Assembly: GCA_963575745.1 (NCBI GenBank)
Contig: CAUYUJ010000206.1
Span: 1-64,000 of the forward strand
Origin: Prorocentrum cordatum
Lineage: Eukaryota
Length of the DNA: 64,000 nt
Direction: 5' to 3'
The translations under genes were made by a program, and so were the position numbers. Below, one piece after another: positions 1,685 to 63,187 of the stretch (position 1 is its first letter; every line of letters starts with the position of its first letter). The notes under the pieces were generated by a model. That model worked only from the letters and a program-made list of their open reading frames with translations. It was not told the DNA's origin and made no database searches.

Positions 1685-1721
<37 letters not shown>

Positions 1722-2141: not shown

Positions 2142-2190
2142 GACGTGGAGGAGGAGGAGGAGGAGGAGGAGGAGGAGGAGGAGGAGGAGG

Positions 2191-2272
<82 letters not shown>

Positions 2273-18330: not shown

Positions 18331-18352
18331 TCCGTAGCCATTTTGGCTCAAG
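18331..18352 (+). other. Exact dinoflagellate spliced leader (DinoSL), genomic copy at the LINE 5' end
   Basis: TCCGTAGCCATTTTGGCTCAAG, 22/22 match; followed by ATG rather than a GT donor, so not an SL RNA gene. Confidence 0.97.
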
Positions 18353-18504
18353 ATGATTGGTTCCCCTGGGGACCGCACGGATACCGCTAGTCCGCGGCCA
18401 GACCACCGTTCGCCTTCACCGTGGGAGTTGGGCGCCCACACCCAGTCCTTTCCAGATCGCGCTGCCACGGCCCACCGTGTGTGCTGCTGCCTGGTGTCGT
18501 GGAG

Positions 18505-19608
18505 ATGCCACCGCCGCATTACCGTTCGGAGCAGGCGCTTCCTTGGTACTGCAAGAGCTGCTGCGGGCCTTCGGGGAGACCGTGGTGGAATCATGCAGAG
18601 GCGCGGCAGTGTGCGAAGTGCAAGCTGGGCAAGGGACTGGTCTTCCACAGCGTGCGCCAGCCCGCGGCCCCCTCCCAGCGGAAGAAGGGCAATCAGGGCG
18701 GCAGCGGCAACGGCTACTGGGACGACTCCGTCAAGGTGGCCAAGCTCAAGTCCGAGCTCGCCGAGGCCCGCAAGCGGCTTGCCGCTGTGCAGAGGCCGCC
18801 GCCTGGCGGGGAGGACGTGCAGATGGAGCCGGCCGCGGACGGAGACGGCCCCGAGTCCGTCGCCAAGGACAGGCTACGCGAGGTCGGCGACCTCATCGGC
18901 AAGCTCAAGGGCATCACCGAGCCGTCGGTCGTGGCCACGCGCGACAAGCTGCTGGCCGAGCAGGCCGAGCTGCGGGCTAGGGTGGCGGAGTCCCGACCGC
19001 TCGGACAGCGCTTGCGCGAGATGGGAACTCAGTTCACCAGGCTGCAGAAGCTGCGCGACGACCAGCAGACCAAGCTCGATGGGCTGCAGGCGCAGTTGCG
19101 CGACCTGCAGGAGAAGGAACGGCTCACTCGGGACAAGCTGGCGGCCCTCGACGCTAGCATGGAGGAGCTGGACCAGGAGCGCAAGAGGCTTCAAGGGCAG
19201 GTTCCGACGCCTGGCGACAAGGCGTCGCTCGACGAGCCGATCAAGGGGGTTGGTGCCACGCTCGAGGGCCTCGGGATCTTGCTCCAGAGCCTGGGCGCCG
19301 ATCACCAGCTGTCGGGCAGCCTCACGGCGAGCTTCCAGGAGCTGCAGAGGTTGCAGGAGGAGGAGGCGGCAAAGTTGGCTGCCCAGAAGGCGCAGGCGGA
19401 TGCTGGGGCCGAGGCTGGTCCCGACGTCGAGCAGGCCGAGCGGCAGGACGACGCGGCAGCGCCTCGCACACCACAGCCATCTGCCTTCTCCGACGACCCT
19501 GAGTTCATGGAGGAAGTCGTTGCGGCTGGGGGCGAGAAGCACAGGCTGGAGGAGATCTTCATGCGTTGGGGTGCCAAGGTCAAGAGGCCCAGGCTCACCC
19601 CTGCCTAG
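18505..19608 (+). CDS. LINE ORF1: N-terminal RanBP2-like C4 zinc finger and long coiled coil
   Basis: WYCKSC...WNHAEARQCAKC motif; E/Q/K/L/A-rich heptad region; ATG at 18505, TAG at 19606-19608. Confidence 0.85.
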   Translation: MPPPHYRSEQALPWYCKSCCGPSGRPWWNHAEARQCAKCKLGKGLVFHSVRQPAAPSQRKKGNQGGSGNGYWDDSVKVAKLKSELAEARKRLAAVQRPPPGGEDVQMEPAADGDGPESVAKDRLREVGDLIGKLKGITEPSVVATRDKLLAEQAELRARVAESRPLGQRLREMGTQFTRLQKLRDDQQTKLDGLQAQLRDLQEKERLTRDKLAALDASMEELDQERKRLQGQVPTPGDKASLDEPIKGVGATLEGLGILLQSLGADHQLSGSLTASFQELQRLQEEEAAKLAAQKAQADAGAEAGPDVEQAERQDDAAAPRTPQPSAFSDDPEFMEEVVAAGGEKHRLEEIFMRWGAKVKRPRLTPA

Positions 19609-19667
19609 CATGGCTCCACGGCGATGGTTTTGCGTGTCTTGTGTGGTTCGTCCTCCTTTGTCGCACC

Positions 19668-22600: not shown

Positions 22601-24450
22601 ATATTCCACGCTACCTTCAGCATCGTGGGGCAGTACGCGGCGTGGGTGTGGGATGGGCGTGTGACGCTCTCCCGACTGCAGCGGGCCTGGATGGGCTTGC
22701 GTGACTCCTGGGAAGCCCGCCACACTCACGTCACGTGGGCCAGTGCGCAGGGCCCGCTTTCGGCCTTGTGGTTGTCCCTCAGGAGAGTCAACTGGAACAT
22801 GGCAAGTTCTACAATCTTGGTTGACGATGAGGGCCTGCATATCAGTTTGCTGCAGTATTGTCCCAGTGAGGTGCTGTTTTTCCTGCGTCGCAGCCTCGAC
22901 CGTTGGCAGAGCCATCGTATCCTCGACCAGCTGCCTGAGGCGCCCCCAGCCGATGGTGACGGCAGGCGGCAGCAGCATGTGTGGCTTCGTGCGCTTCGAC
23001 TGGGACACGCCTCCTTGGCGCCTGGCCACAGAGGGGCTCTGGCCAAGCTGCAGTCCAACGGGGTCTGGTCGCCGCAGCGCCGCATGCAGGCTGGCTACGG
23101 CGGCGACGGTTCGTGCGAGTTCTGCGGGGAGGCCTGCTGCGACCTCGAGCATGAGATCTTCGGCTGCACGGTATTGCATCAGCAGCAGGAGGACGAGGAG
23201 ACGGAGCCGTACCCCGAGGAGGTGGCCAAGAGGAGGAAGGACATCCTGGAGGCAGCCCCGTGGCGCGACGGGGGCCAGGTGCAGGACTTCTCGGCCGTCG
23301 ACGTGCTCTACGCGCTGCCCCTGAGGCCTGCTTTCAGGCCGCTGCCTGCACGTGCTCAGGCTGAGCGCGAGTGGGGGGCGATCGACATGCCGTGGCCGTC
23401 GAAGTTGTACGGGGACGGGTCCTGTCTTGAAAGTGATTTCCCTGAGGAACGGCGCTGTGGCTGGGCCGTCGTAGCATTGACCCGAGACCTGTGGCCATAC
23501 AAAGCTTTGTTCGGGAGCCTGGGGGGCCCTATCCAGACGGTGCCCAGGGCCGAGCGCGTTGCTGGTCTCAAGGCCCTGCAGAGGGCCCAGAGGCCAGCCA
23601 CGTACGTGACTGATCATTTACAGCTGCAGGTCGAGGGAATGGCCTGGGAGGGTCGTCATGCTTCTGCCAGAGCGCCTCACGCGTCCATCTGGCGGAGCAT
23701 CCACGAGCTGTATAGAGGCGACCCTGTCAGGCCCGTGTTTGTTTGGACGAAGGCCCATCGGACCGTCCTCGAGGGGTTTGAGGCCTGCCTGGCCTCCCAG
23801 GAGCCCCTGGAGCATTTTTTCGGTAATATGTGGGCTGATGTTTTCGCCCGCGTGGCAGCGGCTGATTTCCTTGGATCCACCTCCGTGGTCAAGGCTCACA
23901 AATTTTCTCTGCTTCGGGCCCAGGACACGATGCGTTGTCTGGCCTGGGCTGCCGAGCGCGTGGCCCGCCTCTCCACCCCGATACTCCGTGCGCCTCCGAA
24001 GGCTGTCTTTCGGCCCCGCCGTCCGCGGCGGCCGACCGATCACGACTTTGTGGTCTTCGCTGGGGGAGCTATTCGATGTCGAGCCTGCTGGAGGCTTGCA
24101 GCGACGGCCTCGTCGTTGAAGTCTCTGGCCTCCCGTGCATGCGACCCCAGGAGGTCGGGCCAGGACACCAGGTCCAGGCCTTGGATCGAGTTTTGATCTG
24201 TGTTAAGTGCGGGGCGCACGCTGTGCGCCCCAATCGGCTGTCGGTCGGCCTGTCTCGAGCGTGCAAGAGGGCTGGGACGGGGTCGGCGGGAGCTGGGAGT
24301 GGGGGGGACGGAGCTATCGCGTCGATGCTCGAGCTGGCTCGAAGGGGCCTGCATCCCAAGACGGGCGAGCCCCTCGAGCCGCTCGTCTTCTCGGAGCTCG
24401 GGGTGCCTGCGATGCCGCAGCAGGCGCCCGAGCCCGAGGCACCTGACTAG
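19668..24450 (+). CDS. LINE ORF2 (APE endonuclease, RT, Cys/His finger, RNase H, two C-terminal CxxC fingers) with two 1-nt frameshifts at about 19750 and about 24147
   Basis: APE: ITTVNVS / IAVQEH / GGVAV / GGDFN / TIDM / HLPV. RT: LLDMLKCYE / GILAGC / LVDD / YLGH. Finger: CEFC..HEIFGC. RNase H: YGDGS / TVPRAE / TDH / KAH / NMWAD. C-terminal CRAC and CVKC. Confidence 0.92.
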
Positions 24451-26694: not shown

Positions 26695-27380
26695 GACCAG
26701 TGTAAACCCAAGAGTCATCAACGATGTTGGAATAAACCCTCCCTCCAAGCTCCCGTTTCATAGGCCCCTACAACGGCTCATTTCCATAAAAGGAATTGCC
26801 TCTTTGGAAGACAATTGTTGAAAGACCGTGAACCATGCCAAAACATTGTTCTCGGAATTCCAACGCCACGGATCAACCTGACTGTTGCGTCTTGACAATC
26901 CTGAATCGTGCCAGACCGCGGTTCATGGGACTTCAACACAGTGAATCAACATAATTGTTGCACAGCATGCTCCTGAATCGCTTCAAAACACCATTTCTGG
27001 CACGTTGATGATGGGAATCCATGAATCTCTTACGAATGTTGAAAACGAATGTGCGCCGCGCTAAGGCGAGAGTCACATTTTGAAAACCACCTGCCCTCAA
27101 TCCAGCTCTTGCAATGTTTAAAGACAAATGTGCGCCGCGCTGTGGCGAGAGCCACATGTCGAAAACGGCCCGCCCTCCACCCGTGAAACTCTTGCAAATT
27201 TGAAGACGAATGTGCGCCGCGCTAAGGTCAGAGCCACATGTTGAAAACGACCCGCCCTCCATCTGTGAAATTGTTGCCAATCTTTCTGTTTCAGAGTCAT
27301 AAGTGGTATGGAAGTCTCAGGCGAAACGCCCGGCCCGCCCTAAAAACTTGCCTCGGGGTGCGACAGGGAGAAGGTATTTA
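26695..27380 (-). mobile_element. Dispersed 0.7-0.9 kb non-coding repeat with internal ~80-bp subrepeats (possible SINE-like), copy 1; strand is inferred
   Basis: Homologous to 52024-52826 and 52850-53785; subunit GAATGTGCGCCGCGCTAAGGCGAGAGCCACATTTTGAAAA; abuts (GGA)n. Confidence 0.75.
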
Positions 27381-27480
27381 TGGTCCCGGGCTCTGGGCCC
27401 ACGGGCCCCCCCCCCTCCCCCCCAGATGGTATGGTCCCAGGATTCCTCGGCCCCCCCCCCCCAGATGGTATGGTCCCAGA

Positions 27481-27552
<72 letters not shown>

Positions 27553-27569
27553 CACGGCGACGGCGACGG

Positions 27570-27617
<48 letters not shown>

Positions 27618-27662
27618 ACGGCGACGGCGACGGCGACGACGACGACCGCGACGACGACGATC

Positions 27663-27693
<31 letters not shown>

Positions 27694-27862
27694 TGACGAC
27701 GACGACGACCACGACGACGACGACGGCTGCGGCGGCGACGACGCGGCGGCGGCGGCGGCGACGACGACGATGACGACGATGACGACGGCGACGACGACGA
27801 TGACGACGACGACGACGACGAGGACGAGACGACGAGGACGAGGACGACGACGACGACGACGA
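27481..27862. repeat. (GAC)n / (GACGGC)n microsatellite, followed by two ~78-bp tandem units (27862-28020)
   Basis: Directly visible. Confidence 0.95.
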
Positions 27863-28245
27863 CCTCTGAACCACCACAGCACCACACCACATCCACAGGG
27901 GGGGGAGGGGGGCACCGCAGCGCAGCACCACGCCACGCCCACCTCTGAACCACCACAGCACCACACCACATCCACAGGGGGGGGGGGGGGCACCGCAGCG
28001 CAGCACCACGCCACGCCCACAGGGGGGGGCGGGGGGGACCATCGCGCGCAAGGGGGGGGGGCCCAATGGCATCAGCATTGGGGGGGGGGGCCCAAGCCCT
28101 GGACCATTTATCAGGAAAGGGAATGGATTAGGAGGAGGAGGAGGAGGAGGAGGATGAGGAGGAGGAGGAGGAGGACGACGACGACGAGGAGGAGGACGAC
28201 GGACGAGGACGAGGACGAGGACGAGGAGGAGGAGAGGAGGAGGAG

Positions 28246-28280
<35 letters not shown>

Positions 28281-30062
28281 GAGACGAGGAGGAGGACGAG
28301 GAGGAGGAGGAAATAGAGGAGGCAACACGCAGGACGCAGGAGGCAGGGATGACGTTGCATGGGATGACGTTGCATGGGATGATGAGGAGGAGCAGGAGGA
28401 GGAGGAGGAGGAGGAGCAGGAGGACGAGGAGGAAGAGGAGGAGGAGGAGGAGGAAGAGGAGGACCAAGACCAGGACCAGGACGAGGACGAGGACGAGGAG
28501 GAGGAGGAGGAGGTTCGGTTCGGTTCGGATGTCCACGAAAGAAGGGTCAAGCCCTTTCTACCGGGTGGGTTCCAAGCCAGTTTGGGCCCGACGGGGGGAG
28601 GGAGGAGGGAGGGCGGGAGGGAGGGAGAGGAGGAGGAGGAGGAGGAGGAGGAGGAGGAGGACGAGGAGGATTGGATTGGATTGGATTGGACACTTCTGGA
28701 GAGAGAGGGTAGCACAAGACAGACTGAGGGAACTGGGATAGAACCCCTTGCCGCTACGCGCGCGGCCAGGGATGATATTCGCGCGCTCCCCCTGTGAACC
28801 TGTGGAACCCACGGGACGCCACGCATGCTCTCCGCAATGCAGGGCGCTGGGGAGGAGGAGGAGGAGGAGGAGGAGGAGGAGGAGGAGGAGGCGGAGGAGG
28901 AGGAGGAGGAGGAAGAGGAGGAGGAGGAGGAGGAAGAGGAGGAGGAGGAGGAGGAGGAGGGAGAGGCAGAGGGCGGAGGAGGAGGGACGAGGACGACGAC
29001 GAGAGAAAGGAGGCAGGGTTGGAGGGAGGAAGGGATGGAGAGGAGGGAGAGGAGGGAGGGAGGGAGGGAGGGAGAGGAGGCAGGGAGGGAGGGAGGGAGG
29101 GAGGGAGAGAGGGGGGGGGTGCGGAGCAGCATGTCATCTTCAGCGGCTCGCGCAGTGCGTTCGAGAGCACGTCGTGCACGGCAGCTCCAGAGCACGGGCT
29201 GACTCCGCGCGTGACGGTTTCGACCCGCGTGTGAGTTCACAGGGCTCGACTACTGCGCTCAAGGGAGAAAAAACACCCAGACCGGACAATTGGCGTTTAC
29301 TGAACGGCCTTGGGCGTTTGCTAAACAGCCCTGCCCTGTTCGATTCCTTCTTTGGGTGCGTTTACTAAACGGCTTCACGTGTCGGGGTGGTCATTATCGG
29401 GGTGGATCTTCTGCCCTCTATGCACAGGCCATCGCTGATTCTGTCGATCGCTACCCCACCCCTCTTGCCACCACAGACTGCAGTAGCAGAGAGGCCGCAT
29501 AGATTCAAGCCGTGGTGCACTCCATGGTCCCACACCTCGCCAGCCGGGCCGTGCAGTCACGTGCGGTCAAAGGATGCTGCAGGGCAGGTGGCACCGAACA
29601 CGAGCGGCATTGATTGTTGTCGCCAGCATGCTGCCGAGAGTGGGGCGTGGACTGATGGCCTTGCAAGCGTAGGAAGGGCTATGCGGGCTATACACATGAC
29701 GTCTATGTTTTCCCCTGTCGTGATGCCGCACCACCCCTTGGTGGAACCGGTTCTGGGAGGAAGTGCTCGTCGTGTGCCAGTTTTGGGGGGACTTTGTGCA
29801 GGATACGAATGTGAGCGATTCCGTATCTTAGGAGTCGGGGGCTGGCTCGCCTGGGACCCCGTATAGGATGCGAAAGTGAGCGACTCTGTATCTTCGGAGC
29901 CGTGTGAGGGGTTCGTCCGGGGCCCCCGTGAGGAATCCCTATGTGGATGACGTTTGTATCTTCGGACTCGTTTGAATGAAGGTTTAAGCAATCAGGGCTT
30001 GTTTTTTCCGATGGCTCTGACATGTAATGGGCATGCTGCAGCGCATGTTGGCTCGATCCCGA

Positions 30063-36252: not shown

Positions 36253-37020
36253 CTAAGCAGGCCTGGTCATCGACATGCTCGAACAAATGCATACTATGAT
36301 CCAGGGGTGCATCTTGTCTGCGGATCTGCGGCTTAGTACCGTGTGAGATCACCCCGTCCACCGACGCGCTTACATGGCAGGATCGGAGTTGGTTGTCTTC
36401 CAGGTGGGTGGCTTCTGTTTGCCGACGGTGCAGGACACGTTTGTAATTGTTTTTCTGGTTGCACGAGGCTAGTCCCGCAGTGTGGAGGGGGGTGCCCATC
36501 GCACAAGTTCTCAATCGTCTGGCAGTGAGTGCTGCTTTGGCGTAATTTCGCTGCTCGAAGGCCACCTTCATGGGCGCACCATCACTTTTGACACGTCAAA
36601 ATACTGCCCAGGAAATAAGGTCGTTCGCTCAAGGGGCAGGTTGCAATATTCAACGTGAGCGCTCTGCGAGTTGCAGACAGGCTTATCAAATTGTCAATAT
36701 GTTGCTTCGGGCGACGCGAGTCGGTCGGCAGGCTCATTCTCCTCGCTCCAGGATCAGGGATTCGTTGGGCATCCATCCGGGCGGGATCGCTATGGCTCTC
36801 GACCTCGAGGAGGAAGGGGGGAGGGGGGGACGGTGGGGCACAGTGGCAGCGCAGCAGCCTCAGCCAGCAAGCCCGAAGGCCGGCAAGGCCAGCGGCAGCC
36901 ACCCCCCACCCATTCGAGACGATCGAAGGACAGGACAGGACAGGAGCGGCGTGCGCGGAGGCGCGCCCTGTGCGGGCTGCCGTAAGCCTTCTCGCATTCT
37001 CGCACGCGCATTCTCACATG

Positions 37021-37219
37021 TGTGGTCGTACCCCCACTCCCCTCCTCCCTGTGTGTCCCTTGGATCTGACCGTAGCCTGTTGGCTTAAGGCCGCCGGGTC
37101 GGCGGAGTTTCTCAGTACTGTACTGTGGTGTTCAGAGGCGTGCCTCGGAAAACTCTATGCCCATCCTTTGATAACTCGTTATCTTTCGCCTTCTTCGATG
37201 CCCGACGGAGACGATCTCA
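37021..37219 (+). repeat. 5' LTR (TG...CA)
   Basis: Identical to 46403-46601 except the penultimate base. Confidence 0.96.
37069..37089 (+). other. SL-like sequence within the LTR (also at 46451-46471)
   Basis: ACCGTAGCC-TGTTGGCTTAAG versus SL ACCGTAGCCATTTTGGCTCAAG: 19/22 (one gap, two mismatches). Confidence 0.8.
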
Positions 37220-40200
37220 ATGGTAGCCGGAGCGTGGATGAGAATGGGTCGGGACAGGCAACAGAGGGCGCGAGGACGTCCGAGGCACCACGGCAGGCTG
37301 GGAGCCCATCGGCTGAGGCGGATGCAGCACATCAGCAAGGCGGCGAAGCAGCAGAGGGCCGCTGGTGGAGCTCGTGGTGGCAAAGCTGGTCGGGGGCAGG
37401 CTGGGACTGGAGCATGTCCGACTGGGATGACAACAGCACCCACGGCTGGACTAAGGTGGGCTCGCAGCCCGTCAGGAGTAGGGATTTTTCGGCGCCTCCT
37501 TCCTTTCCCGGGCTAGATCACCTGGAGATCTTCACGGCCAACTTGCAGGCATGGTCCAAGAGAACAGGGGTTCTGCCAGAACACCAGGCCAGCAAGGTGC
37601 TCGAAGGCTTCGAGATAGATCTTCAGGGCAAGCGCAAGGGGATACGCCACCTTCTTGATGCAGAGGACGGCATAACGGAGTTGCTCAAGCACTTGCACCT
37701 TCTTAGGGGGGAAAAGCCAGGCGACAAGGAGCGAGAAGCTCACAGCGAGGCGCTGTTCGATTACCTGATTCGTCCGACAGAGTCCCTCACTGCTTTCGTC
37801 ATCAGGCGTGACAGCCAGATTGCTCAAGCAGAGAGGTTCGGTCTCACGCTTCCAGACGCTGTGCAGGCACGCTACTACGAGGAGGGCGCACAGCTGACCA
37901 AGCATAACCGCATCAACCTACGGACCTTGATGGGCGGAGACAAGACAGTAGCAGCGGTTAGACGAGCGCTCTTGGAGCTTGACGTCTCAGAGAAGTCGGT
38001 TCTCCCTCAGAAGTCAGCGACGCCGGCGAAGAGTTTCCCAGCAGAGCTAGAGGGCTGGGACTCGGACTCGGAAGACGGCGACGAGACGCTCGACCTCTTT
38101 GAAGTGGAATTCCCCGAAGATGACGCGACAGTGTTTCTGGGGGCGCTGGACGACAAAGACTTGTGCGAAGATGAGGGATACCAGATCTTCATGGAGATGG
38201 CTTCGAAGCGAAGGCGGACCTGGAAGGAGTCTAGGCAAACGAAGGCGGCGAGAAAAGTTGACCGAGACTTTTTCGACCGTAAGCGAGGTGGCAAAGGTGG
38301 AGTCCTTTCGCCTCCAACTCCATCTCCCGGCTTCAAGCGCATCAGCAAGGACGACTTGAAGAAGAGAACGCGTTGCACAAATTGTGGAGATAAAGGTCAC
38401 TGGCGAGAAGATTGCAAGAAGCCATACAGGTCGAAGGCGGACAGACTCAAGTCGGAGGGCAAGAGCTTCTACTTTCAAGTGGGATCGGCAGCGGGCTCGA
38501 GCGGAAGCGCCTGGGCGATTTTCGCCGAGGAGCTGGCCGAGGCGATCGCGTTGGTGACGGCTAGCAGGTCAGACTCATTTTCGGGAGTGACGCTGAGGTC
38601 GATGGCAGACCAGGCTCTGGTAGACACGGCAGCGGCCCAGGCTTTGATAGGCGTCCCGGACCTCAAGCATCTCAAGTCGGCTTTCAAGGAGAAGGGTTTC
38701 AAGGTGCACGTTAGGTACCAGGACGATCTTCCTTTCGCCAACGGCGTCGGAGGGCGCGTCCGCCCGGTCGCCAAAGCTTTCGTTCCAGTATCATTTCACG
38801 GCTGTGGGGTCTTGGAATTTCTCGTGTTGCCGCATCCTTGTCCTCCCTTGTTGCCAGCAGGGTTCCTGGACTTCATGTCGGCCAAGATCGACCTAGCGGC
38901 CAACCAGATGACGGTGGGAACGGACGACACCACCACGCTGGATATGACGAAGCTCCCATCAGGCCACCGCACGATCGGTCTGATCGGCAAGTCCCCGTCG
39001 GATTTCGTTCTCGACCCTGATCTGGCCCAGAAGTTTCCGTCTTCTCGGATCGGCTCGGAGAGCGCCTGGGCCATGAGCGTGTCGAGCGGCTCAGACAGGT
39101 GGGAGCGGGGCGGCAACAAGCTGAGGCTGGTGTTCACCAAGCCCCGGCGTGCCATGCCAGTGAAGAAGGATCTGAGTGAGTCTCCCGTTCCGTCGAGCTT
39201 TCTGGAAGACGAGATGGTCACGACTTGCAGGTTCAAGAATCCCGACGGGATCTACGTCGAGCACATCTTCGAGGGCTCGGTATCCGACCTCGAGGACGAT
39301 GCGAAGCTCATGCCGGACTACTGGGTCGGGCACGTGGAGTTTCAGGTGACGGCGCCGCCTGTGCAGGACAGGAGGGGCGGGCCGGGGCCGCCTGCATGCC
39401 AGCAGTCTCCTCCTCCTCTCTCGTCGTCCGAGTCGTCGTTCGAGTCGGGATCGATCGCGACGGGACTGAAGTCAGGGACTGACGAGGGGTCTCGAGACCC
39501 CCTCTCCTCCGTAGCCCCTCTCGGCTCGAGCTCGGCCGATTCTTTCGTCCACGTATCGCCTCCCAGCTCGCAGCCGGCGGGTAGCCATGCCGGTGCAGGT
39601 TGTCAAGAAGGGCGCCAAGCCGGGTTCGAGGTCAGTGGGGAACCTGCTGGGGCGCACGCGCGCCTCGATCAGGAACGCAGGCGGGCTCGCTCCACCGACG
39701 CACTACGAGGAGCCGGCCGAGAGCGAGATCGAGGAGAACTGGGGCGTCACGCCGGATCCCTGGAGGGACACGCAGCTGCAGCAGATCGACTACTCGGAGG
39801 TGGAGCTCAGCGAGGTCGAGAAGGGTCTGGTCAACGAGGGCGGGTTTATGTTCACGCCCGCGGAGACGGGCTGGCGGCGCTTCGCGCTGAAGCTGCTGGC
39901 AGTACTGACCTCGTGCGCTCAGTCGAGGCTGATCTCGGTGCTCGCCCCCTCGGTGATGCCGGCGATCGCCAGCAAGAAGATCTTCGCGACCGAGAACTGC
40001 CCGCACCCCCTGGAGCACCGCAAGCGCCGGGCCAACCAGCATGCGGCCTGGATCGTCTGCCAGCTGTGCAACAAGCGTCTTTCGTGTCACTCCAAGACGG
40101 TCGAAAAGAAGCTCGAGGCCAAGATCAAGAGGGAGTGCGAGAAGACCGAGAAGTCACAGAAGGCCAAGAACGAGCAGGACATGATCAGGGAGGCGGTGGA

Positions 40201-42477
40201 GGCCTACCACGCGAAGCAGGAGCACGTGAAGCAGGAGACTCTCGACGAGCCGGGTGCCCAGGAGGTTCCACCTCATCATCCGACTTACCGCAGGGCCGTG
40301 CCCATCAGCTCTGCGTGCCCGGTGTTTCCCCGCAGCGAGGGGCATCCAGGAGTGCCGAACCACCTCTCTTGGAAGGTGCCGCCGCCGGGCTACGTGGCGA
40401 TCGACCTCGAGGGACCGGCCGCGACGAAGGCACCTCCGACGGCACGCAAGTCCTCTGGGGTCGCGCACCTGACGCGTGCCCAGGGCCAGAGCGGAATGCT
40501 GAGGAACCAGAACCCGACGGTCGAGAGTCACCTGATGGAGGCGCTCTTGCAGAACCAAGAGTCCAACCGCAAGGAGATCCTGGAGTACATGTTCGCACAG
40601 AGGCAGGAGTCGCAGGCGACGAGGGAGCAGTTCGAGCAGCTGATGAAGGTCTTGTCGGCGAATCTTCGTTCGGGCGGATGATCGGCTTCGGGATCGGAGG
40701 GGCCTCCGATCGAGCCAGCACCCATGGAGACGCTGGACGACGAGTACGGCCCGAGGCGCCTCTCGTGAGCAGCTGCCCGGCTCAGGACAAGCTGGACGGC
40801 GACCTGGTGGCGAGTGAGCCGCCACGGGCCTTTGCTTCCGCTGACGCCGGGTCCTCCATATTCGAGGCTTCGACGAAGATCGAGGTCGAGTCTGCGCACG
40901 CGATAGCAGGCTCCACGGACGCCAAGTCTGACCCGGGCTCGAGCAGAGCTTTGGATAAAAAGAAGTTCAGTCGTTCCACGATTTGGGAAATTTCGTCAGC
41001 CTCTCAGGAAACTCAGGAGAGGCTTCGCCAGATCCTGCGCCCGGGGACCGATCCGAGCGGCTGGACCGCCAAAAGTTTTTCAGTCTGGGACTCTGGGGGA
41101 CGCCGCGAGCATCTGAGGGTCAGGTCGGGCTTGGAGGCTCGCTGGGTCTGGGATGCTGACACGGGGGGGCATGTCTCTCTGGAAAGGCTCTCGGACGAGG
41201 CGCAGTGGCAAGCCGAGGACGTCGGCCCGAGCGAGAAGGCCCAGTGGTTGGTCTACCTCGCTCTTCGAGCCGCGGACAGCCGCGCGATGGAGTGTCCTAG
41301 GTCGGGGGTTAGGCGTTTGAGAGTGACGGCGACGGACCGGGCTCGGGACGTGGTGGACGCGCTGTGGGCCGGGGCCTCAGCGTCAGGGCTCCAAGAGGCC
41401 TTAGCCGGATACAGCGCCGATCAGCTAAGGTTTACCGTTTGGTCTCCTGGTCGCCCGTCGTCGGACTTAGCTTCCCAGATCCCTAGCTCTTGGGTCGTCT
41501 TGGACAAGAGCCCGCTCCTTAGCAAGCGTCGAGAAGCGCCCGAAGCAGCAGTTCCCCGTCATGTGCGCCAAGACGCCCTTAGAATGTTCGACGGGGTAGG
41601 AATCCGAGCCGGTCGCAAGAAGCTAAGGAAGGACCTCATACGCCATCTTCGACGAGAACAGAGGACCCTGCTTTTGGAGCTTTTCTCGACCCCTCGAGTC
41701 TCAGTGGAAATGGTTCGTAGGGGCTATCAGGCCTCCCACGCTATCGATCTTAGGACAGGTTGGGATCTTCGCCAGGCGAGTCAGAGGGCCAAGCTCTGGG
41801 AGGTCATGGAGAAGGACGGGCCCGAGGTCCTCCTGATGAGCCCTCCTTGTAAGGGTATGAGTGTCGCCAGGGTCCCTAACTGGGACACCATGCCGAAGCA
41901 CGATAGAGATCGAGTCGAGCAAGAGTGTCTGATGATGTGGGGTCTGTGCATGCAGCTGGCGATGTTTCAGCTGTCCAAGGGACGGTCTCTCTGGATTGAG
42001 AATCCGTACGGAGCCTTCTCTCAGCAGCTGAGCTCGACGAAGGAGCTTCTGAGCCAGCCCGGGGTCCAGGTGGTTCGGGGAGACCAGTGTGAGTTCAGGC
42101 TCAGGACCCTCGACGGGGGTCTGGCCATGAAGCCCACGAGCTTCATCTCGAACAGTCCGGAGCTTCTCGCCGTGTGTCACAGGAGGTGCACGGGGCAGCA
42201 TGAGCACTCGCAATTGGTGGGCGGGGCCAGGACATCAGCAGCTGAACGGTATCCTGAGCGTCTGGTGGACGCGCTGATTGAGGGCGTTGAGCGGACAGGT
42301 TTTGCCGTTCTGTCAGCTAGCGAGCCGGAGGCCCTCTCGTTTCCGGCCGCCGCTGCCCCAGGGGCAGACCCCCACCCGGTTGACGGCGGAGAGATCAGCG
42401 ACTCCGAGGAGGAGGGGGAACTCGAGCGTCCGGGCCCTGAGGGGGCCGAGAAATCCGATGCCTCAGGTTCGGTTTGA
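37198..42477 (+). CDS. Copia polyprotein part 1: Gag, CCHC knuckle, aspartic protease, linker, C5 DNA methyltransferase
   Basis: In-frame ATG inside U5 (37198); CTNCGDKGHWREDC (38374-38415); ALVDTAAA (about 38623); ELFS / SPPC (41839-41850) / IENP (about 42000) / DQC / KPT; ends at an in-frame TGA. Confidence 0.9.
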   Translation: MPDGDDLNGSRSVDENGSGQATEGARTSEAPRQAGSPSAEADAAHQQGGEAAEGRWWSSWWQSWSGAGWDWSMSDWDDNSTHGWTKVGSQPVRSRDFSAPPSFPGLDHLEIFTANLQAWSKRTGVLPEHQASKVLEGFEIDLQGKRKGIRHLLDAEDGITELLKHLHLLRGEKPGDKEREAHSEALFDYLIRPTESLTAFVIRRDSQIAQAERFGLTLPDAVQARYYEEGAQLTKHNRINLRTLMGGDKTVAAVRRALLELDVSEKSVLPQKSATPAKSFPAELEGWDSDSEDGDETLDLFEVEFPEDDATVFLGALDDKDLCEDEGYQIFMEMASKRRRTWKESRQTKAARKVDRDFFDRKRGGKGGVLSPPTPSPGFKRISKDDLKKRTRCTNCGDKGHWREDCKKPYRSKADRLKSEGKSFYFQVGSAAGSSGSAWAIFAEELAEAIALVTASRSDSFSGVTLRSMADQALVDTAAAQALIGVPDLKHLKSAFKEKGFKVHVRYQDDLPFANGVGGRVRPVAKAFVPVSFHGCGVLEFLVLPHPCPPLLPAGFLDFMSAKIDLAANQMTVGTDDTTTLDMTKLPSGHRTIGLIGKSPSDFVLDPDLAQKFPSSRIGSESAWAMSVSSGSDRWERGGNKLRLVFTKPRRAMPVKKDLSESPVPSSFLEDEMVTTCRFKNPDGIYVEHIFEGSVSDLEDDAKLMPDYWVGHVEFQVTAPPVQDRRGGPGPPACQQSPPPLSSSESSFESGSIATGLKSGTDEGSRDPLSSVAPLGSSSADSFVHVSPPSSQPAGSHAGAGCQEGRQAGFEVSGEPAGAHARLDQERRRARSTDALRGAGRERDRGELGRHAGSLEGHAAAADRLLGGGAQRGREGSGQRGRVYVHARGDGLAALRAEAAGSTDLVRSVEADLGARPLGDAGDRQQEDLRDRELPAPPGAPQAPGQPACGLDRLPAVQQASFVSLQDGRKEARGQDQEGVREDREVTEGQERAGHDQGGGGGLPREAGAREAGDSRRAGCPGGSTSSSDLPQGRAHQLCVPGVSPQRGASRSAEPPLLEGAAAGLRGDRPRGTGRDEGTSDGTQVLWGRAPDACPGPERNAEEPEPDGRESPDGGALAEPRVQPQGDPGVHVRTEAGVAGDEGAVRAADEGLVGESSFGRMIGFGIGGASDRASTHGDAGRRVRPEAPLVSSCPAQDKLDGDLVASEPPRAFASADAGSSIFEASTKIEVESAHAIAGSTDAKSDPGSSRALDKKKFSRSTIWEISSASQETQERLRQILRPGTDPSGWTAKSFSVWDSGGRREHLRVRSGLEARWVWDADTGGHVSLERLSDEAQWQAEDVGPSEKAQWLVYLALRAADSRAMECPRSGVRRLRVTATDRARDVVDALWAGASASGLQEALAGYSADQLRFTVWSPGRPSSDLASQIPSSWVVLDKSPLLSKRREAPEAAVPRHVRQDALRMFDGVGIRAGRKKLRKDLIRHLRREQRTLLLELFSTPRVSVEMVRRGYQASHAIDLRTGWDLRQASQRAKLWEVMEKDGPEVLLMSPPCKGMSVARVPNWDTMPKHDRDRVEQECLMMWGLCMQLAMFQLSKGRSLWIENPYGAFSQQLSSTKELLSQPGVQVVRGDQCEFRLRTLDGGLAMKPTSFISNSPELLAVCHRRCTGQHEHSQLVGGARTSAAERYPERLVDALIEGVERTGFAVLSASEPEALSFPAAAAPGADPHPVDGGEISDSEEEGELERPGPEGAEKSDASGSV
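37221..37237 (+). promoter_or_regulatory. Primer binding site, probably for initiator tRNA-Met
   Basis: TGGTAGCCGGAGCGTGG, 1 nt after the LTR; TGGTAGC...GCGTGG is the expected complement of a tRNA-iMet 3' end (one extra base). Confidence 0.8.
39587..40681 (+). CDS. 364-aa ORF overprinted in the +1 frame within the copia polyprotein; Cys/His motif and coiled coil; function unknown
   Basis: Own ATG (GCCATG context) and TGA; natural amino-acid composition; CPH..N.HAAWIVCQLC motif; the polyprotein frame here is G/A/R-rich yet stop-free. Confidence 0.78.
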   Translation: MPVQVVKKGAKPGSRSVGNLLGRTRASIRNAGGLAPPTHYEEPAESEIEENWGVTPDPWRDTQLQQIDYSEVELSEVEKGLVNEGGFMFTPAETGWRRFALKLLAVLTSCAQSRLISVLAPSVMPAIASKKIFATENCPHPLEHRKRRANQHAAWIVCQLCNKRLSCHSKTVEKKLEAKIKRECEKTEKSQKAKNEQDMIREAVEAYHAKQEHVKQETLDEPGAQEVPPHHPTYRRAVPISSACPVFPRSEGHPGVPNHLSWKVPPPGYVAIDLEGPAATKAPPTARKSSGVAHLTRAQGQSGMLRNQNPTVESHLMEALLQNQESNRKEILEYMFAQRQESQATREQFEQLMKVLSANLRSGG

Positions 42478-45400
42478 ATTCCACGGGAACTCCAGGACGA
42501 GGTCCACAAGTTACACGTGAATTTGGGACACCCCCGGCGAGAGCATCTGATCAGGACGCTAAAGGTCGCTCAAGCAAAGCCTGAGGTCATCAACTGGGTC
42601 AGCAAGCATTTCGTGTGCCCTGGATGTCAGTCGGCCTCTCGGCACGGCTGGCGCCGGCGCTCGTGCCTGCCGCGAACCTATCGGTTCAATAAATTGGTCG
42701 CGGCGGACCTTCTGTATATAAGTGCCCTCGGCGAGACTAGGCCAGTCCTCAACTTGATCGACCACGGGTCGAACTTCCAGGTTTGCGTCCTCCTGCGCTC
42801 GGCTTCGGCCGTCGAAGTGTGGGGGGCCTTTCTGCGGTGTTGGGTGAGGCCACTCGGTCTGCCTGAGACCGTCATGACAGACGGGGGACCCGAGTTCGAG
42901 GGAGCCTTCTCCCGGGGGCTGGAGCAGGAAGGAATCTTCCAACACGTGTGCGACGCGGAGTCACCCCACCAGAACGGGCGCTGCGAGCGTCATGGGGGGC
43001 TCGTGAAGGCTGCTCTGGTTAAGGCTTCTGGAGGCACTGCTCCAGCGACTCTGGAAGAAGTGGAGGACCTTCTCTGCGAGGTGGTCGCGGCCAAGAACCG
43101 TTTTGCCCATAGGGGAGGGTTCTCTCTTTACCAAATGGTTTTTGGGGAAAATCCCAGACTCCCTCGTTGCCTTTTGTCGGGCGATGCTCACGACGAGGTC
43201 GGGATCGACGAGGCGGTGAGGGGCTCGACTGACGCGGAGTCTCCGTCGGCAGCTTTCGCGAGGAAGCATGCTTTGCGAGAGGAGGCCCGGCGGGCCGTCA
43301 TGACCATGGACGTGCGGGGCCGTCTCGTTTCTGCCTCGCGTGCTCGCAAGCATGTGGATCCAGTGTTTTCCCCGGGGAGTTGGGTTTACGTGTGGAGGCG
43401 TGCCCCCTCTCAGCCTCGCGGCAACGTCGGTAAAAGCAGGTGGACTGGGCCCGGGGCCGTGGTTTTCCAGCAGGGAACGACGGTTTGGGCGGCGATACGC
43501 TCGCGTCTTTTGAAGTGTGGGAGCGAACAGGTTCGTTGGGCCACCAAGGAGGAGTCGTGGGGAGCCGAGCTTCTCGACTCTCCCTCTTTCGACAGCCTCA
43601 GGCGCGACCTGAAGGACCCAGGGAAGCGGGTGGGAGCGGTTGACGTGGAGTCCGAGGGGCCCCCTCCTCCAGGTGCTTGGGACGTGGCGGCGCCCCCTGA
43701 ACGCTCGGAAGGCGCAGCTGCGGTGGTGGCCCCACCCACTGCTCGAGGGGCTGAGCCGGTGGTTGCTCCAGAGGATGATCCTCCTGCCCCTCCTGCTCCT
43801 CCTCTCCCCTCTTCGCTCGAGAGGGCCTCGACGGCCCAACCTCCCTCTTCGATCCAGGGGTCCGTGCCCACGCCCGCGGTCTCTCGTCAGATCACGGATC
43901 CGGGAAGCGTCGATCCCTCCCCTCGTCCTCATCAGAGACCAAGGCTGGAGCAGCCTCCCCCTCACCAGTCAGCGCCTCGGACCCCGGCAGAGCAGCTGCC
44001 AGCTTCTGGGCGAGCGTTGGCGCTCGCGAGAGAGATCGACCCTTCGATCCGGCGCCGCAGCGCTCTAGATGACACTCCAGTTTCGATTCGCCGTGGCGAT
44101 CTGCGCCCGGCTGCCTCTTCCTCCTCCGACGCTCCTGGCCAGCCGAGCTTAGGTGCTGGTGGCGGCGCAGACGCCGTCCTGGAGTCCGGAGGGCGTGCGA
44201 GGTCGCGAACTCCCGAGCCTCGCCTTCTCGAGCCCAGGGATGAGTCCCTGAGATCGGGCACGGTTTTTGACAGATACGGTGCTCCGGTCTCGAGGGTCGC
44301 CGATCGGGCGATTCGAGACGCTGGCTTGGAAGATGTGCCTCCAGATCAGAGGATCTTGGGTTCCTGGTTTGAGGGCGGCGGCGAAGACGAGCAGCCAGAG
44401 TTCGACGAAGAGCAGGAGGAAAGCCTATGGGCTGAGTTGTGCGGGTGGTACGGCTGGGAGCCGTCTTTTTGGGTTGGGGGAGATGACACCTTCGCGGAGA
44501 CTGGGGGCTGTTCTGGGGAAGGGGCCCCTCCCAGTCGGAGAGGAGCGGAGGTTTCGTTCAAGCATCTCTCGGAGGCCGAGAGACGCCTTTTCGTTTTCTC
44601 AGATGCCAAGGAGTGGCAAGCGATTTTAGATTCAGGAGCGGTGAGGATCGTTCCTGCCGCCGAGGCGGCTTTAGTGCGCAAGCGTTTTCCTGATCGAGTG
44701 CTGGGTTCCCGGATGGTCCGACGTTTTAAACCACAGGAGGGTTTGGGGTCTGAAGATGTTGCTAAATCTCGATGGTGCGTGCAGGGGCACCATGACCCCG
44801 ACAGTGATCAGTTACAGATCTACGCCCCCACCCCCCAAGGGGAAAGCATCATGTTGACTCTACAAGCGATTTGCTCGTTGGGTTGGACCTTGGAAGTTGC
44901 AGATGCTAAGAGTGCATTCTGTCAGTCCAACAGACTGTCTCGTCCACGTGGACAGATTTTCTGCGAGCCCTGTCAGGGGCTGAACCTCGCCCCAGGCGAG
45001 CTCATTGAGCTCATTGCGCCAGTGTATGGATTAAATGATGCTCCATTGCTGTGGCACCGCACGCTCACACAATGGTTGTCCGAGGACGGCTTCCGAGAAA
45101 TTCCTTCTCGAGCCCTGTTTGTGGGTGAAACGGTCGGGCCAGGGGGAACCTCGCTCCATCGTGCTCATAGAAGTGGACGACCTTATAGTGTCTTCGCACC
45201 CCAGGGAAAGGGCCGGTTTGAGGGAGCGGCTCCAAGGCCGTTTTAAATTCGGGAAGTGGAAAATCGGGGAATCGGATTTTGCGGGGAGGCATCTCAAGCA
45301 GGTGGGGTCTCGTATTTTTGTGGACCAAGAAAAATACGTCGTTGAGCAGCTTGCCCCCATGCGTCTGGCTAAGGAGCGCCGTGCTGTGCCGGATGATCTT

Positions 45401-46470
45401 CTCACCGCGGAGGAGATCCGCCACTATCGTACGATGGTGGCACAGATACAGTGGCTGGGGAGGGAGTCTCGTCCGGACGTGGCCGCCGGAGCCTCTTTGC
45501 AGAGTGCCGCGCTGCCTAGCCCCACGGTGGCTGACGCCATCATGTGTTTGAAAATAGTTAAGCATCTCAAGAGTTCGGCGTGCCAGAAGATTACGATCTG
45601 GCCTCTAGACGCTGCTTCTCTGAATTTCGTGACTATTTCCGATGCTGGTGGCCCCGGGTCCGCTCGTAGAAACGGGGCCCAAGGAGGATGGCTCGTGTGT
45701 GCGGCCGATGCGTCGATTCGGCAAAATGTGAGGTCCCGGGTGTCCTTGCTTTCTTGGCGTTCGGTCAGGTTGAAGCGCGTGGTCGCTTCCACGGGGGCTG
45801 CAGAGACTCTGAGTTTGAGTGCCGCGCTGGCCGAGGGCCAGTGGCTCGCCATCATGTGGCGAGACTTGCTTTTCAATGACGTGTGCAAGCCCGAGTGGCA
45901 CCTCTCGCAGGCGCCCTTCTCTGTTGTGCTGAGCAGGGACTGTACCTTGTCTGAGGGAGTGAGCTCGCTTTCGGTCGTTGACGCGAAATCAATTTTCGAT
46001 ACTTTGTCTCGCAACAGTGCGGGCTCCCGTCAGGACAGGAGAACGGCGATTGAGCTCGCTGTCGTGCGCGACAGTCTCTCGGCTATAGGCTCTCAGATCA
46101 GATGGGCCCCTCATGGCCGCATGGCGGCAGATTGCCTTACTAAGGCAGACTCACACGGGGAAACGTGGCTCTCTCGGATCTTCTCAGTCGAGGTTCGATC
46201 GTGCTCGTGGATGAGGAGGGACATATGACAGAGAGAGCTCTCAACAATGATCTGAAGAGTCGGTCGCGCGCGTCGTCCCGTCAGGCTCTGAACCAGCCGG
46301 GAGACGGCTACTGGGTCGGGGATCAGGCCGGGGTAGGCGAGAGGGGTGAGGAGGAGGGCAGGAGTTTCGGGCCGCTGTCAGATCCACTGAAAGTAGTCCC
46401 GTTGTGGTCGTACCCCCACTCCCCTCCTCCCTGTGTGTCCCTTGGATCTGACCGTAGCCTGTTGGCTTAA
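42478..46470 (+). CDS. Copia polyprotein part 2: integrase, RT, RNase H (frameshifts at about 45100 and about 46158)
   Basis: HVNLGH..CPGC; AADL / TDGGPEF / NGRCERHGG; KSRWCVQG / DAKSAF / YGLNDAP / EVDD; SDA / AAE / VDAKS / ADCLTK; same frame as part 1 across the TGA. Confidence 0.93.
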
Positions 46471-46601
46471 GGCCGCCGGGTCGGCGGAGTTTCTCAGTAC
46501 TGTACTGTGGTGTTCAGAGGCGTGCCTCGGAAAACTCTATGCCCATCCTTTGATAACTCGTTATCTTTCGCCTTCTTCGATGCCCGACGGAGACGATCTT
46601 A
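46403..46601 (+). repeat. 3' LTR (TG...TA)
   Basis: 198/199 identical to the 5' LTR; followed by CATG. Confidence 0.96.
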
Positions 46602-48304
46602 CATGCTCGCACAGCACCTCGATTTCACATTTTCATATTCTCACATTCTAGTCAGTCCACGTTCTAGTCAGTCGCATTCGAGACGATCGAAGTAGGTGCG
46701 GAAACAATGGGTGAACAGGACTCGCTGTCCGCGTCGCCGCACGCTGTCCACCTAAAACAAAAAGCAGCCCGCCCAACCGCGGGGGGCTGTCGTTTCTGGA
46801 CAGCACCTGCTGCTGGGCATCGTGTCCATTTCCTTCTACCCCTTTCGGGCTTTCAAGCCCATCAGTTCTGCACGAACGAGATGGGCACGGAAAGAATGGG
46901 TACACTGCTCAACAGCAGTTCCTGTTCATTTTGAAAAGGACTCGCTGTCCGCGCCGCCGCGGACTGTGTCCATTTGAGACAGGAGGCCGCCTGCCCAACA
47001 GCGGCCGCTGTTGATCTGGGACAACATGTGTTGTTGGTTTGGGACAACATGTGTTGTTGGGCGTCCAAATCAGTAGACGTTTGTCGCGAGCCTGCTCGCG
47101 GGGGGAGGGAGGAAGGGAGGGAGGGAGGGGGGGGGGGAGGAGGAGGAGGGAGAGGGGAGGGAGGGAGGGAGGAGAGGAGGGGAGGGAGGGGGGAAGGACC
47201 AGGAGGAGGAGGAGGAGGAGAGAGGGGAGGAGGGAGGAGGGAGGGAAGGGCAGTGCCCCCCTCCTCTCCTCCTCCTCCTCCCCCCCCCCCCCCTGGAATT
47301 CAAGTGGCCTGCGGGCGCCGACGCCAGAGTTCGCGGCCCCAAGGGCGGACCGATCCTTCCGGCTGCTCCTGGGGTCCCTTGGGGTGCCGGTCCTCCCAGG
47401 AGGGAGGGAGGGAGGGGAGGAGGAGGAGGAGGAGGAGGAGGAGGAGGAGGAGGAGGCGGGAGGGAAGGAGGGAGGGAGAGAGGGACCGAGCCCTCCCGCG
47501 CGGCCTCCAGCCGGGGGCGTGCGCGCCCTCCTGCGGCCACCCCTAGGAGGCGGGCCCCCTCTCCCTCGCGGCGCGGCAGCGGCGGTCGCTGCGCGGCCCG
47601 CGGCGGTCGCTGGCCGGGAGGGCGCTTCGCTTCGGTCCGCCCGTCCCCCCAGAGGTCCGCTGCCCGCTGTCCTCTCCCTCCCCCTCCTCTCCTCCTCCTC
47701 CTCCTCCTCCTCCCTCCCTTTCCTCCCTTCTCCTCTCCTCCTCCTCCCTCCTCCTGCTCCTCCTCCTCCTCCTCCTCCTCCTCCTCCTCCTCCTCCTCCT
47801 CCTCCTCCCCATCCCTCCCTCCTCCGATGCCTTCCCCCCCCCCCTCCTGCTCCGCTCCGTCTGATGTTGGAAACCATCGGGGGCAGCATTAGGGGGGGTT
47901 AGGCTTCGGGGGGTGTGGAACATCGAGCTAGGATCGGCGATACACCGACGATAGATCGACGATGGGCTCCCGATAGCGAATCCGCACATCCCCAGGCGGG
48001 GTGGGCTATCATGCCCCCATCGGCGACATATCGCCAATCCCAGCTAAGTGTTCCCCCCCTTCAGCGTTGACTTTCAAATGAGGGGGACAGGGACGCCCGG
48101 GCGACGATGGGGGACGCAAGGGCCAAGGGCAGCGACGGGTTGGAGGGCCAGGGCGCGGAGGACGCGAGGGAGGGCAACGGGACTCAGGCGCTCGTCGTCC
48201 ACGACGGCGCCTTGAAGGGCTTCACCCAGCGCCTCCTCAGGACGGTTCTCCCGCGTGTGGCAGCTTACGAGAGCAGGAGAAAGACGAGGAGAAATGAGGA
48301 GACG

Positions 48305-63114: not shown

Positions 63115-63136
63115 TCCGTAGCCATTTTGGCTCAAG
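63115..63136 (+). other. Second exact DinoSL, directly after (CCT)n/(CCTCCG)n
   Basis: TCCGTAGCCATTTTGGCTCAAG, 22/22; not followed by GT. Confidence 0.97.
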
Positions 63137-63187
63137 CCTGCTTGGGCGCCAGGCGGGCTGTTGCTGCCCCCTGCCGCGGCTCGGGCG

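Follow-up and report, generated by a model that had tools for sequence, protein, structure and literature searches.

Organization of the Locus

A 64,000-nt stretch of DNA from the dinoflagellate Prorocentrum cordatum (assembly GCA_963575745.1, contig CAUYUJ010000206.1, positions 1 to 64,000 of the forward strand; hereafter the window) contains a 9.6-kb long terminal repeat (LTR) retrotransposon that houses an additional open reading frame (ORF), ORF B. This element is copia-like and was inserted recently. Its host is judged to be a Prorocentrum-like dinoflagellate, since the closest proteins are P. cordatum gene models and the window contains two perfect copies of the dinoflagellate spliced leader. 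The element is flanked by a 5-bp target duplication, ACATG (37016–37020 and 46601–46605), and has both the LTRs and the short target-site duplication of a Ty1/copia-type element. Its polyprotein frame, here called frame A (frame 0), is open from 36619 to 42477, and the integrase and reverse transcriptase (RT) follow in unchanged phase behind the TGA in which it ends. ORF B is a real gene. Read in the +1 frame (frame B, or frame 1), it is offset by one base against frame A, has the protease region on one side and the downstream domains on the other, and is in all probability an old accessory gene of the element lineage. The coordinates of the features are collected in Table 1.

Table 1. Features of the copia-like element and of ORF B (window positions).
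Feature	Position	Strand	Remarks
5' LTR	37021..37217	+	197 nt; 100% identity to 3' LTR; dinoflagellate spliced leader (DinoSL) mimic 37070–37085; gag ATG 37198
Frame A gag/protease region	37198..39366	+	CCHC knuckle 38374–38415; protease-like LVDTAAAQALIG 38617–38652; post-protease domain
Serine/proline (S/P)-rich segment	39367..39598	+	232 nt (1 mod 3), carries the frame offset
DinoSL-like relict CCGTAGCCCCTCTCGGCTCGAG	39509..39530	+	22-mer, 56 nt ahead of ORF B ATG
ORF B	39587..40681	+	Frame +1; ATG 39587, TGA 40679–40681; 364 codons
Polyprotein frame A over ORF B	39589..40680	+	364 codons, stop-free, G/A/R-rich; read as spacer
ORF B tail in sister copies	40682..40768	+	28 codons and TGA at 40766–40768
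Frame A downstream region	40769..42477	+	Conserved domain, family not assigned; DNA methyltransferase (DNMT)-like segment; ends in in-frame TGA 42475–42477
Integrase, RT, C-terminal part	42481..46228	+	One-base frame break at 45093
3' LTR	46403..46599	+	100% identity to 5' LTR; DinoSL mimic 46452–46467

The ORF B Protein and Its Homologues

An earlier prediction, made from the letters of this DNA (the original prediction), had proposed a gene with its own start and stop codons in the +1 frame; both codons are in place, and the translation has 364 codons. It also contains the predicted CPH-x9-N-x-HAAW-x2-C-x2-C motif and the hydrophobic stretch WRRFALKLLAVLTSCAQSRLISVLAP. The coiled coils proposed at the same time are matched by the long helices at residues 172–219 and 311–362 of an AlphaFold2 model. 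In this model, based on 25 sequences, mean predicted local distance difference test (pLDDT) is 68.8 and the core (140–220), in which three short strands are combined with a long helix, is above 90; another helix is modeled at 91–123, and the helix at 311–362 is C-terminal. The protein comprises a disordered N-terminus, the motif NW..TPDPW, one amphipathic and two long helices, together with a small three-strand unit of C-H-C-C type. This unit is predicted to be zinc-ribbon-like, with long coiled-coil helices beside it, and the protein falls outside any known family. Pfam assigns no family to ORF B, and Foldseek with the model returns nothing at E ≤ 1e-3, its weak rows including the zinc ribbons of Rpp21, eIF2-beta and ELOF1. 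A full structural scan with VIA-align gives generic coiled coils only (Z ≤ 6.2), and the best Atlas score, 0.80, is meaningless.

The predicted stop codon of ORF B is present as a TGA but is private to the window copy. Both short-read contigs covering this site have 40680 G>C and 40681 A>G, turning TGA into TCG, and the gene model P0031, from a sister copy, has Ser there and reads on past it (SGGSSAS...) to at least 40741. The next stop of frame B (40766–40768) adjoins the point where the coding signal reverts to frame A. Divergent homologues end 10–30 residues past the last helix, with tails rich in G/S or in acidic residues.

A full HMMER scan of 1.84 billion representatives identified 26 homologues of ORF B at E ≤ 1e-3, of which 10 reach E ≤ 1e-10 and one E ≤ 1e-30; they are 21–40% identical. 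For 20 of the 26 the origin is given: seven are Prorocentrum cordatum gene models, five belong to a transcriptome-derived protein set, six come from ENA assemblies, and Logan and the JGI contigs (the P0021 cluster) contribute one each. The alignment has four conserved blocks, NW..TPDPW.D.ELQ, a WRR helix, C.HP..AR....NQ......C..C..RL...T.EE and the C-terminal helix, and ORF B shares the start MP(V/T)(Q/R) with P0010 and P0007. In gene models P0012 and P0036 ORF B sits between the protease side and the DNMT-like side, and in P0006 and P0031 the protease side is joined to ORF B only. P0031 is the sister copy, and P0012, P0036 and P0006 are divergent relatives, so that ORF B, found at the same place in their gene models, is a long-standing part of the element lineage. 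Divergent subfamilies stand behind the P. cordatum entries CAK0871333, CAK0841027, CAK0827879 and CAK0901847. Fused forms of ORF B were sought among longer proteins and none was found; likewise, no DNA of relatives was found in the metagenome, viral and genome scans made.

Coding Signal and Constraint in the Two Frames

A codon log-odds score, with the genes of the element itself as training set, favors frame 0 as far as about 39520. Frame 1 is preferred between about 39580 and about 40740, and the return to frame 0 falls near 40740–40800. The third-position GC content (GC3) follows the same course. Within 39700–40600 it is 0.84–0.94 in frame 1 vs. 0.37–0.49 in frame 0, and in the remainder of the element it is 0.6–0.84 in frame 0; for the whole of ORF B it is 0.87. 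Over ORF B the polyprotein frame is G/A/R-rich (G 18%, A 14%, R 13%) and stop-free, as had been predicted.

The contigs of a DNA run comprise many sister copies of the element. There are 288 contigs, 53 with identity of at least 99%, 71 of 95–99%, 94 of 90–95% and 70 below 90%. The sister-copy comparison lists 40 of 655 differences, with 15 in ORF B, 10 of them from one contig, and is thus a small sample. Read in frame B, nine of the 15 are silent (nine of the 13 in sense codons), four change a residue and two fall in the stop codon. The same 15 read in frame A are silent in three cases and residue-changing in 12, and none of them creates a frame-A stop. These counts agree with composition and homology. 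ORF B is shown to be conserved and under purifying selection, and frame A over it to be free in its residues, yet kept open beyond chance.

This reverses the direction of overprinting. ORF B had been described as overprinted inside the polyprotein, but it is the conserved frame and has a normal protein composition, and frame A is unconstrained in its residues, 12 of the 15 listed differences changing one. Since B is conserved and A is open yet not conserved, the word "overprinted" suits the polyprotein frame better than ORF B. The proposal of a dual-coding region with an accessory protein stands in so far as both frames are constrained over about 1.1 kb and B is the accessory gene; for frame A the constraint concerns stops, not residues.

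Absence of Stop Codons from the Polyprotein Frame

The openness of frame A was compared with a null model in which the synonymous codons of ORF B were shuffled within the ORF (20000 shuffles). No frame-A stop is observed over ORF B vs. a shuffle mean of 6.6, and the share of shuffles with zero stops is 0.0003 (0.0000–0.0007 in three repeats). Of the 365 codons of ORF B, 29 end in T and none of these precedes AA, AG or GA, with which 27% of its codons begin. In the equivalent frame of control coding regions, stops amount to 0.65–0.73 of the shuffle expectation. The element's other coding parts have 0.73 of the expected stops, 86 of their 490 T-ending codons giving one, and observed and expected stops in three further high-GC3 ORFs of the window are 3 and 9.0 (ORF 27344–28738), 4 and 5.8, and 8 and 8.4. 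Because control frames are themselves stop-depleted, the shuffle null is somewhat too strict, and the corrected chance of zero stops is about 0.002–0.014. None of the seven control regions is without stops, and the longest open runs in the equivalent frame of the element's other coding parts are 66–101 codons, vs. 364 or more over ORF B. Both frames are open over the shared stretch beyond chance (calibrated P 0.002–0.014), as in a dual-coding region.

Frame A could be left untranslated over ORF B, the downstream domains being expressed otherwise or the lineage being non-autonomous, and its lack of stops would then reflect GC3 bias and luck. The scarcity of T-ending codons in ORF B, the stop depletion already present in the control −1 frames (e.g., 3 vs. 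9.0 in ORF 27344–28738) and the frame-A peptide, which is not conserved and matches nothing, are all in line with such a layout. We consider it rather improbable, in view of the stops present in all seven controls, their much shorter open runs and the calibrated chance. The coding signal, moreover, returns after ORF B in the same phase as before it, and a long interspersed nuclear element (LINE) in the window threads its long frame through an accessory gene in a like manner (see below).

Assembly errors were also considered. Compensating indels at both ends of ORF B, by which the segment would truly belong to the polyprotein frame, were looked for in the contigs, and none is listed. Over 9185 bases, the indel places listed are five (43964, 43965, 45093, 46149, 46153), none before 43964, and none of the three listed joints falls at the borders of ORF B. 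Depth of run X1 is present in 30 of 30 bins, and a single contig crosses 40594–41130, and with it the 3' border of ORF B, gap-free. The same contigs reveal a one-base difference at 45093, which means that the indel test has power; as this difference in the RT is seen and no indel is listed at either border of ORF B, compensating assembly errors are unlikely. X1 may be the source sample of the window, and is in that case an independent short-read assembly, not an independent strain. Runs X2 and X3 cover parts of gag-protease and of ORF B at a depth of 2–4, and nothing was drawn from them. At 45093 the window is indeed one base off from every contig that covers the site, but an artefact at ORF B, which would also leave the stop-free frame A unexplained, is hardly credible.

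A Spliced Leader Relict before ORF B

The DinoSL-like relict spans 57–78 nt upstream of the ORF B ATG. The pattern CCGTAGCCN{3,8}GGCTC occurs in the 64 kb at 39509–39527 and in the two perfect DinoSL copies (18332 and 63116) only, with none expected. Together with the GAG that follows, the match at 39509–39527 makes up the 22-mer. Compared with DinoSL, the first eight positions of the relict and seven of its last eight agree, and the U-run is replaced by CCTCTC. Its TAG (39512–39514) is the frame-B stop that opens the frame of ORF B, its AG (39513–39514) is a candidate trans-splice acceptor, and no ATG lies between it and the start of ORF B (39515–39586). The candidate acceptors proposed originally, CCCAG, CGCAG and GGTAGCCATG, are located at 39562–39589. 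The 8-mer GTAGCCAT is found three times in the window, in the two DinoSL copies and across the ORF B ATG at 39581–39588. Relict and 8-mer lend indirect sequence support to the internal SL trans-splicing proposed originally. Both LTRs contain a spliced leader (SL) mimic, CCGTAGCCTGTTGGCT(TAAG), for which no chance match is expected in the window (Table 1).

DinoSL relicts mark dinoflagellate retrogenes (Slamovits and Keeling, 2008, cited after PMC6050394) and sit at −50 to −100 (PMC6050394). The distance of the relict from ORF B fits this range, and thus the position of a DinoSL tag. The relict shows that the ORF B cassette once passed through a leader-capped RNA; that trans-splicing may take place at it at present is what we infer from its sequence.

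Around the other DinoSL copies, the perfect one at 63116–63136 (+) follows CCT/CCG repeats, and an open frame at 63122–64000 (GC3 0.84) runs off the window; this site looks like the 5' end of a retrogene. A (CCT)n run also precedes the copy at 18332.

The relict marks a retrocopy, and ORF B might accordingly be a recently captured or decaying, functionless one, only the openness of the polyprotein having significance. The window's TGA, premature relative to the sister copies, and the loss of the His of the C-x-H-P motif from P0031 are consistent with decay. This is nevertheless improbable: divergent elements have homologues of 21–40% identity at the corresponding position, the listed sense-codon differences leave the B residue unchanged in nine of 13 cases, and five homologues come from the transcriptome-derived protein set.

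The S/P-Rich Segment and Fused Gene Models

Pyrimidine runs, the internal SL mimic and the leader of ORF B all lie in the S/P-rich segment, in which the frame offset resides and which also takes in the first four codons of ORF B. The frame-A codon score of the segment is weakly positive (+0.1 to +0.19). It ends in GA..AG with CAG/G at both sides, and its deletion fuses ...APPVQ to VVKKGAK..., equal to the junction ...VTVPPVQ/VVKKGAK... of P0031. As a diverged tandem duplicate of the start of ORF B it was rejected, the alignment showing only about 16 nt of likeness at the junction. One record from run X9 (record 24; the run is guessed to be RNA) matches 39185–39369 with one difference in 185 and then leaves the window at 39369/39370, at the left edge of the segment. 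Its 10-letter loose end is found nowhere in the element with up to one mismatch.

The segment could be a GA..AG intron, so that spliced RNA would encode a Gag-protease-B fusion terminated by the stop of ORF B and unspliced RNA the full polyprotein through frame A. Its removal reproduces the P0031 junction (...VTxPPVQ/VVKKGAK...) exactly, its ends and the flanking CAG/G are suitable, pyrimidine runs precede the acceptor, and P0006 likewise passes from the protease side into ORF B. Donors of this kind are, moreover, common in dinoflagellates, GC and GA donors making up 25–74% of introns in Symbiodiniaceae according to the available part of PMC11453091. Cis-splicing is, however, an unlikely explanation. 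P0031, P0006, P0012 and P0036 are automatic models that enter ORF B at four different points, and large conserved parts are skipped (the two long models, P0012 and P0036, omit conserved blocks, e.g., the PC motif region in P0036), as would be done by a predictor bridging frame changes. The segment scores as weakly coding in frame A, no contig skipping it is listed, and it holds both an SL relict and a start codon kept as MP(V/T)(Q/R) in P0010 and P0007, neither of which a plain intron needs. P0012 also fuses a cyclic-nucleotide-binding, channel-like host part with pieces of the element. Fusing host-like parts and skipping blocks, P0012 and P0036 hide the true layout of the elements in the public proteome.

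P0012 and P0036 read the protease side, ORF B and the DNMT-like side as one, as if ORF B were an ordinary in-line polyprotein domain reached by two frame changes, through a pair of introns or through ribosomal frameshifts of +1 and, after it, −1. Retroelements use −1 frameshifts, and formally the step back from B to A is one. The stops of frame B up to 39514 confine a +1 shift to 39515–39590, and no slippery heptamer was seen by eye either there or in 40600–40768. The coding signal also moves from B to A without a gap for a second intron. As such a domain offers no account of why frame A is stop-free, nor of the SL relict and the conserved ATG, we give it little credence.

Proposed Expression of ORF B

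The best explanation of these data, which we consider to have about an even chance of being right, is that the polyprotein reads through ORF B as a spacer, that the B protein is made from an internally trans-spliced sub-genomic mRNA, and that the relict entered by reverse transcription. Full-length RNA would be translated from the gag ATG straight across the −1 frame of ORF B, so that the downstream domains would be preceded by a disordered, G/A/R-rich spacer; by this read-through the element would remain autonomous. Some of the transcripts would be joined to the spliced leader of the host, at an AG that lies within the relict or shortly behind it (39513–39514, 39566, 39572 or 39583). The first AUG of such an mRNA would be that of ORF B, which would make it a dinoflagellate counterpart to a retroviral spliced accessory mRNA. 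The relict itself may have entered when a leader-capped RNA of the element, or a captured host mRNA, was reverse-transcribed into the element.

Several points weigh against this explanation. The models P0031, P0006, P0012 and P0036 join the protease side to ORF B in one frame, and such fusions would be expected equally of a genuine intron or of an ancestor in which the layout was in frame. No database protein matching the frame-A reading was found among those of 1073–3416 or of 30–1072 aa. The relict attests past, not present, trans-splicing. The calibrated P of about 0.01 is good, not overwhelming, and the counts of constraint rest on the 40 listed of 655 differences, with 10 of 15 from a single contig. 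The window copy itself may be non-functional, given its in-frame TGA at 42475 and its extra base at 45093.

Other Parts of the Element

The gag ATG lies inside the 5' LTR, 20 nt ahead of its end. A primer-binding-like sequence, TGGTAGCCGGAGCGTGGA, whose complement ends in ...CCA, was recognized by eye at 37221–37238; as it starts 3 nt past the LTR, and the gag ATG is upstream, it would lie inside gag coding sequence. No tRNA genes were found in the 64-kb window, and hence there is no partner with which TGGTAGCCGGAGCGTGGA could be compared. Rfam gives no match across the window. In the gag/protease region codon score and GC3 (0.71–0.90) favor frame 0, the zf-CCHC match in Pfam has 17.4 bits (E 0.0046), under the cut-off of 20.8, and the D-T-A motif of the protease was recognized by eye. 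The conserved post-protease domain ends in MPDYWVGH...APPVQ. P0031 is 90% identical to this region over 287 aa.

P0012 and P0036 align to the downstream region of frame A. The name DNMT given originally to the domain in this region could not be confirmed. For the DNMT-like segment Pfam finds nothing at E ≤ 10, phmmer against PDB finds nothing relevant, and a single-sequence fold has a pLDDT of 38. Two motifs were recognized by eye in 41620–42321, a PC-like SPPCKGMS (41839–41862) and an ENP-like ENPYG (41998–42012). The in-frame TGA at 42475–42477 divides this region from the integrase. It may be a private mutation, or else a stop that is read through, and is absent from the sister-copy differences listed.

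Downstream, the Pfam match to rve (42688–42966, E 5.7e-5) is below the cut-off and that to RVT_2 (44701–45108, 33.7 bits) is above its cut-off of 31.6. The integrase lies upstream of an RVT_2-type RT, which is the copia-type layout. An extra C at 45093 interrupts the RT frame. It is absent from both short-read contigs that cover it and is a copy-specific mutation or an assembly error; without it the RT reading ...DGFEKFLLEPCLWV... is restored.

A Second Case in the Window

A LINE-like element at 18332–24193 (+) starts with a perfect 21-nt DinoSL, directly followed by ATG 18353 and a frame of 1946 codons. A match to an APE-like endonuclease begins at residue 455 (Pfam E 8e-4, below the cut-off). 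The first ~420 codons of this long frame overlap an open frame of 405 codons (18391–19605, GC3 0.84) in another frame. There, ATG 18505, the second one behind the leader and the first in this frame, opens a 367-codon ORF1, of zinc-finger and coiled-coil type by eye. Over the 405-codon stretch the long frame has no stops vs. 6.4 expected, and the controls match expectation (12 vs. 11.0, 6 vs. 5.9, and 14 vs. 14.3). BLASTP of ORF B against ORF1 of the LINE shows no likeness (E 0.41). Two unrelated retroelements in the window thus thread a long frame through a high-GC3 accessory gene, which suggests a more general habit.

More broadly, and with considerable doubt, it may be proposed that retroelements of dinoflagellates, where every host mRNA is leader-capped, write accessory genes in a second frame in or ahead of pol and reach them via the spliced leader. 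In the copia element, internal SL trans-splicing would give a retrovirus-like sub-genomic mRNA, and in the LINE of the window the accessory gene would be reached by leaky scanning from the AUG right behind the leader. The mimics in the LTRs and the relict before ORF B would then have a working role in the cycle of replication and expression rather than being scars.

Comparison with Known Systems and Significance

Retroviral accessory genes, such as tat, rev, and vpu of lentiviruses or tax and rex of deltaretroviruses, are located in overlapping frames and expressed from spliced sub-genomic mRNAs. ORF B resembles them in being a sense ORF over the main ORF in another frame, the AUG of which RNA processing would bring near the cap. 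It differs in its place, between the protease and the downstream domains of a copia-type polyprotein, and in the processing proposed, which would be SL trans-splicing rather than cis-splicing. In the overlaps of gag, pro, and pol of retroviruses and Ty, with programmed frameshifting, successive coding segments are also in different frames. In those cases the overlap extends over tens of bases and the upstream frame comes to an end, whereas over ORF B more than 1.1 kb of the main frame is stop-free and no slippery site was seen by eye.

Copia elements are thought to express one polyprotein and to have any extra genes outside it. The additional ORFs (aORFs) described for LTR retrotransposons are placed upstream or downstream of gag-pol, or else between pol and the 3' LTR, and the words "overlap" and "within" are absent from the available text of the review (Vicient and Casacuberta, 2020; PMC7264820). 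Like the aORFs described there, which are carried by most copies of an LTR-retrotransposon lineage, ORF B is a conserved extra gene whose role is not known; unlike them it lies wholly inside the open polyprotein frame (36619–42477), and not outside gag-pol (PMC7264820). For Symbiodinium, the accessible part of Chen et al. (PMC5776459) describes copia elements with RT, integrase, RNase H, and LTRs only. A nested sense gene in a copia polyprotein was not found in full-text literature on overprinting, overlapping, or additional ORFs in retrotransposons or dinoflagellates, a body of text with most subscription journals outside its coverage.

With DinoSL-tagged retrogenes (PMC6050394, in the part available) ORF B shares the leader-like 22-mer at a typical relict position. 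It differs from them as a cassette in a retrotransposon that has no known parent gene and the relict of which is itself translated in the polyprotein frame. Extra coding capacity in dinoflagellate retroelements is also known from DNMTs in LINE and DIRS-like elements (SymbioLINE-Dnmt, SymbioDIRS-Dnmt3), and Copia elements of Symbiodinium are stated to be without a DNMT domain (de Mendoza et al., 2018; PMC5890265). The focus here is instead an out-of-frame gene, and the DNMT identity of the window segment is unconfirmed; if 41620–42321 is a DNMT, it would be copia-borne, unlike in Symbiodinium as described there (PMC5890265).

The arrangement combines known kinds, namely retroelement accessory genes, overlapping frames, and SL-tagged cistrons; an out-of-frame gene nested in the polyprotein and accompanied by a leader relict is a layout that was not found reported for copia-type elements. 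It is also a warning for annotation, as the two long gene models, which skip large conserved parts, appear to bridge frame changes with invented introns, so that the public proteome may conceal the layout. The host has published multi-omics, among them a proteomics data set (PMC10449503), and the case is directly testable. If the proposed expression is true, a mobile element would use spliced-leader trans-splicing in the way that retroviruses use cis-splicing.

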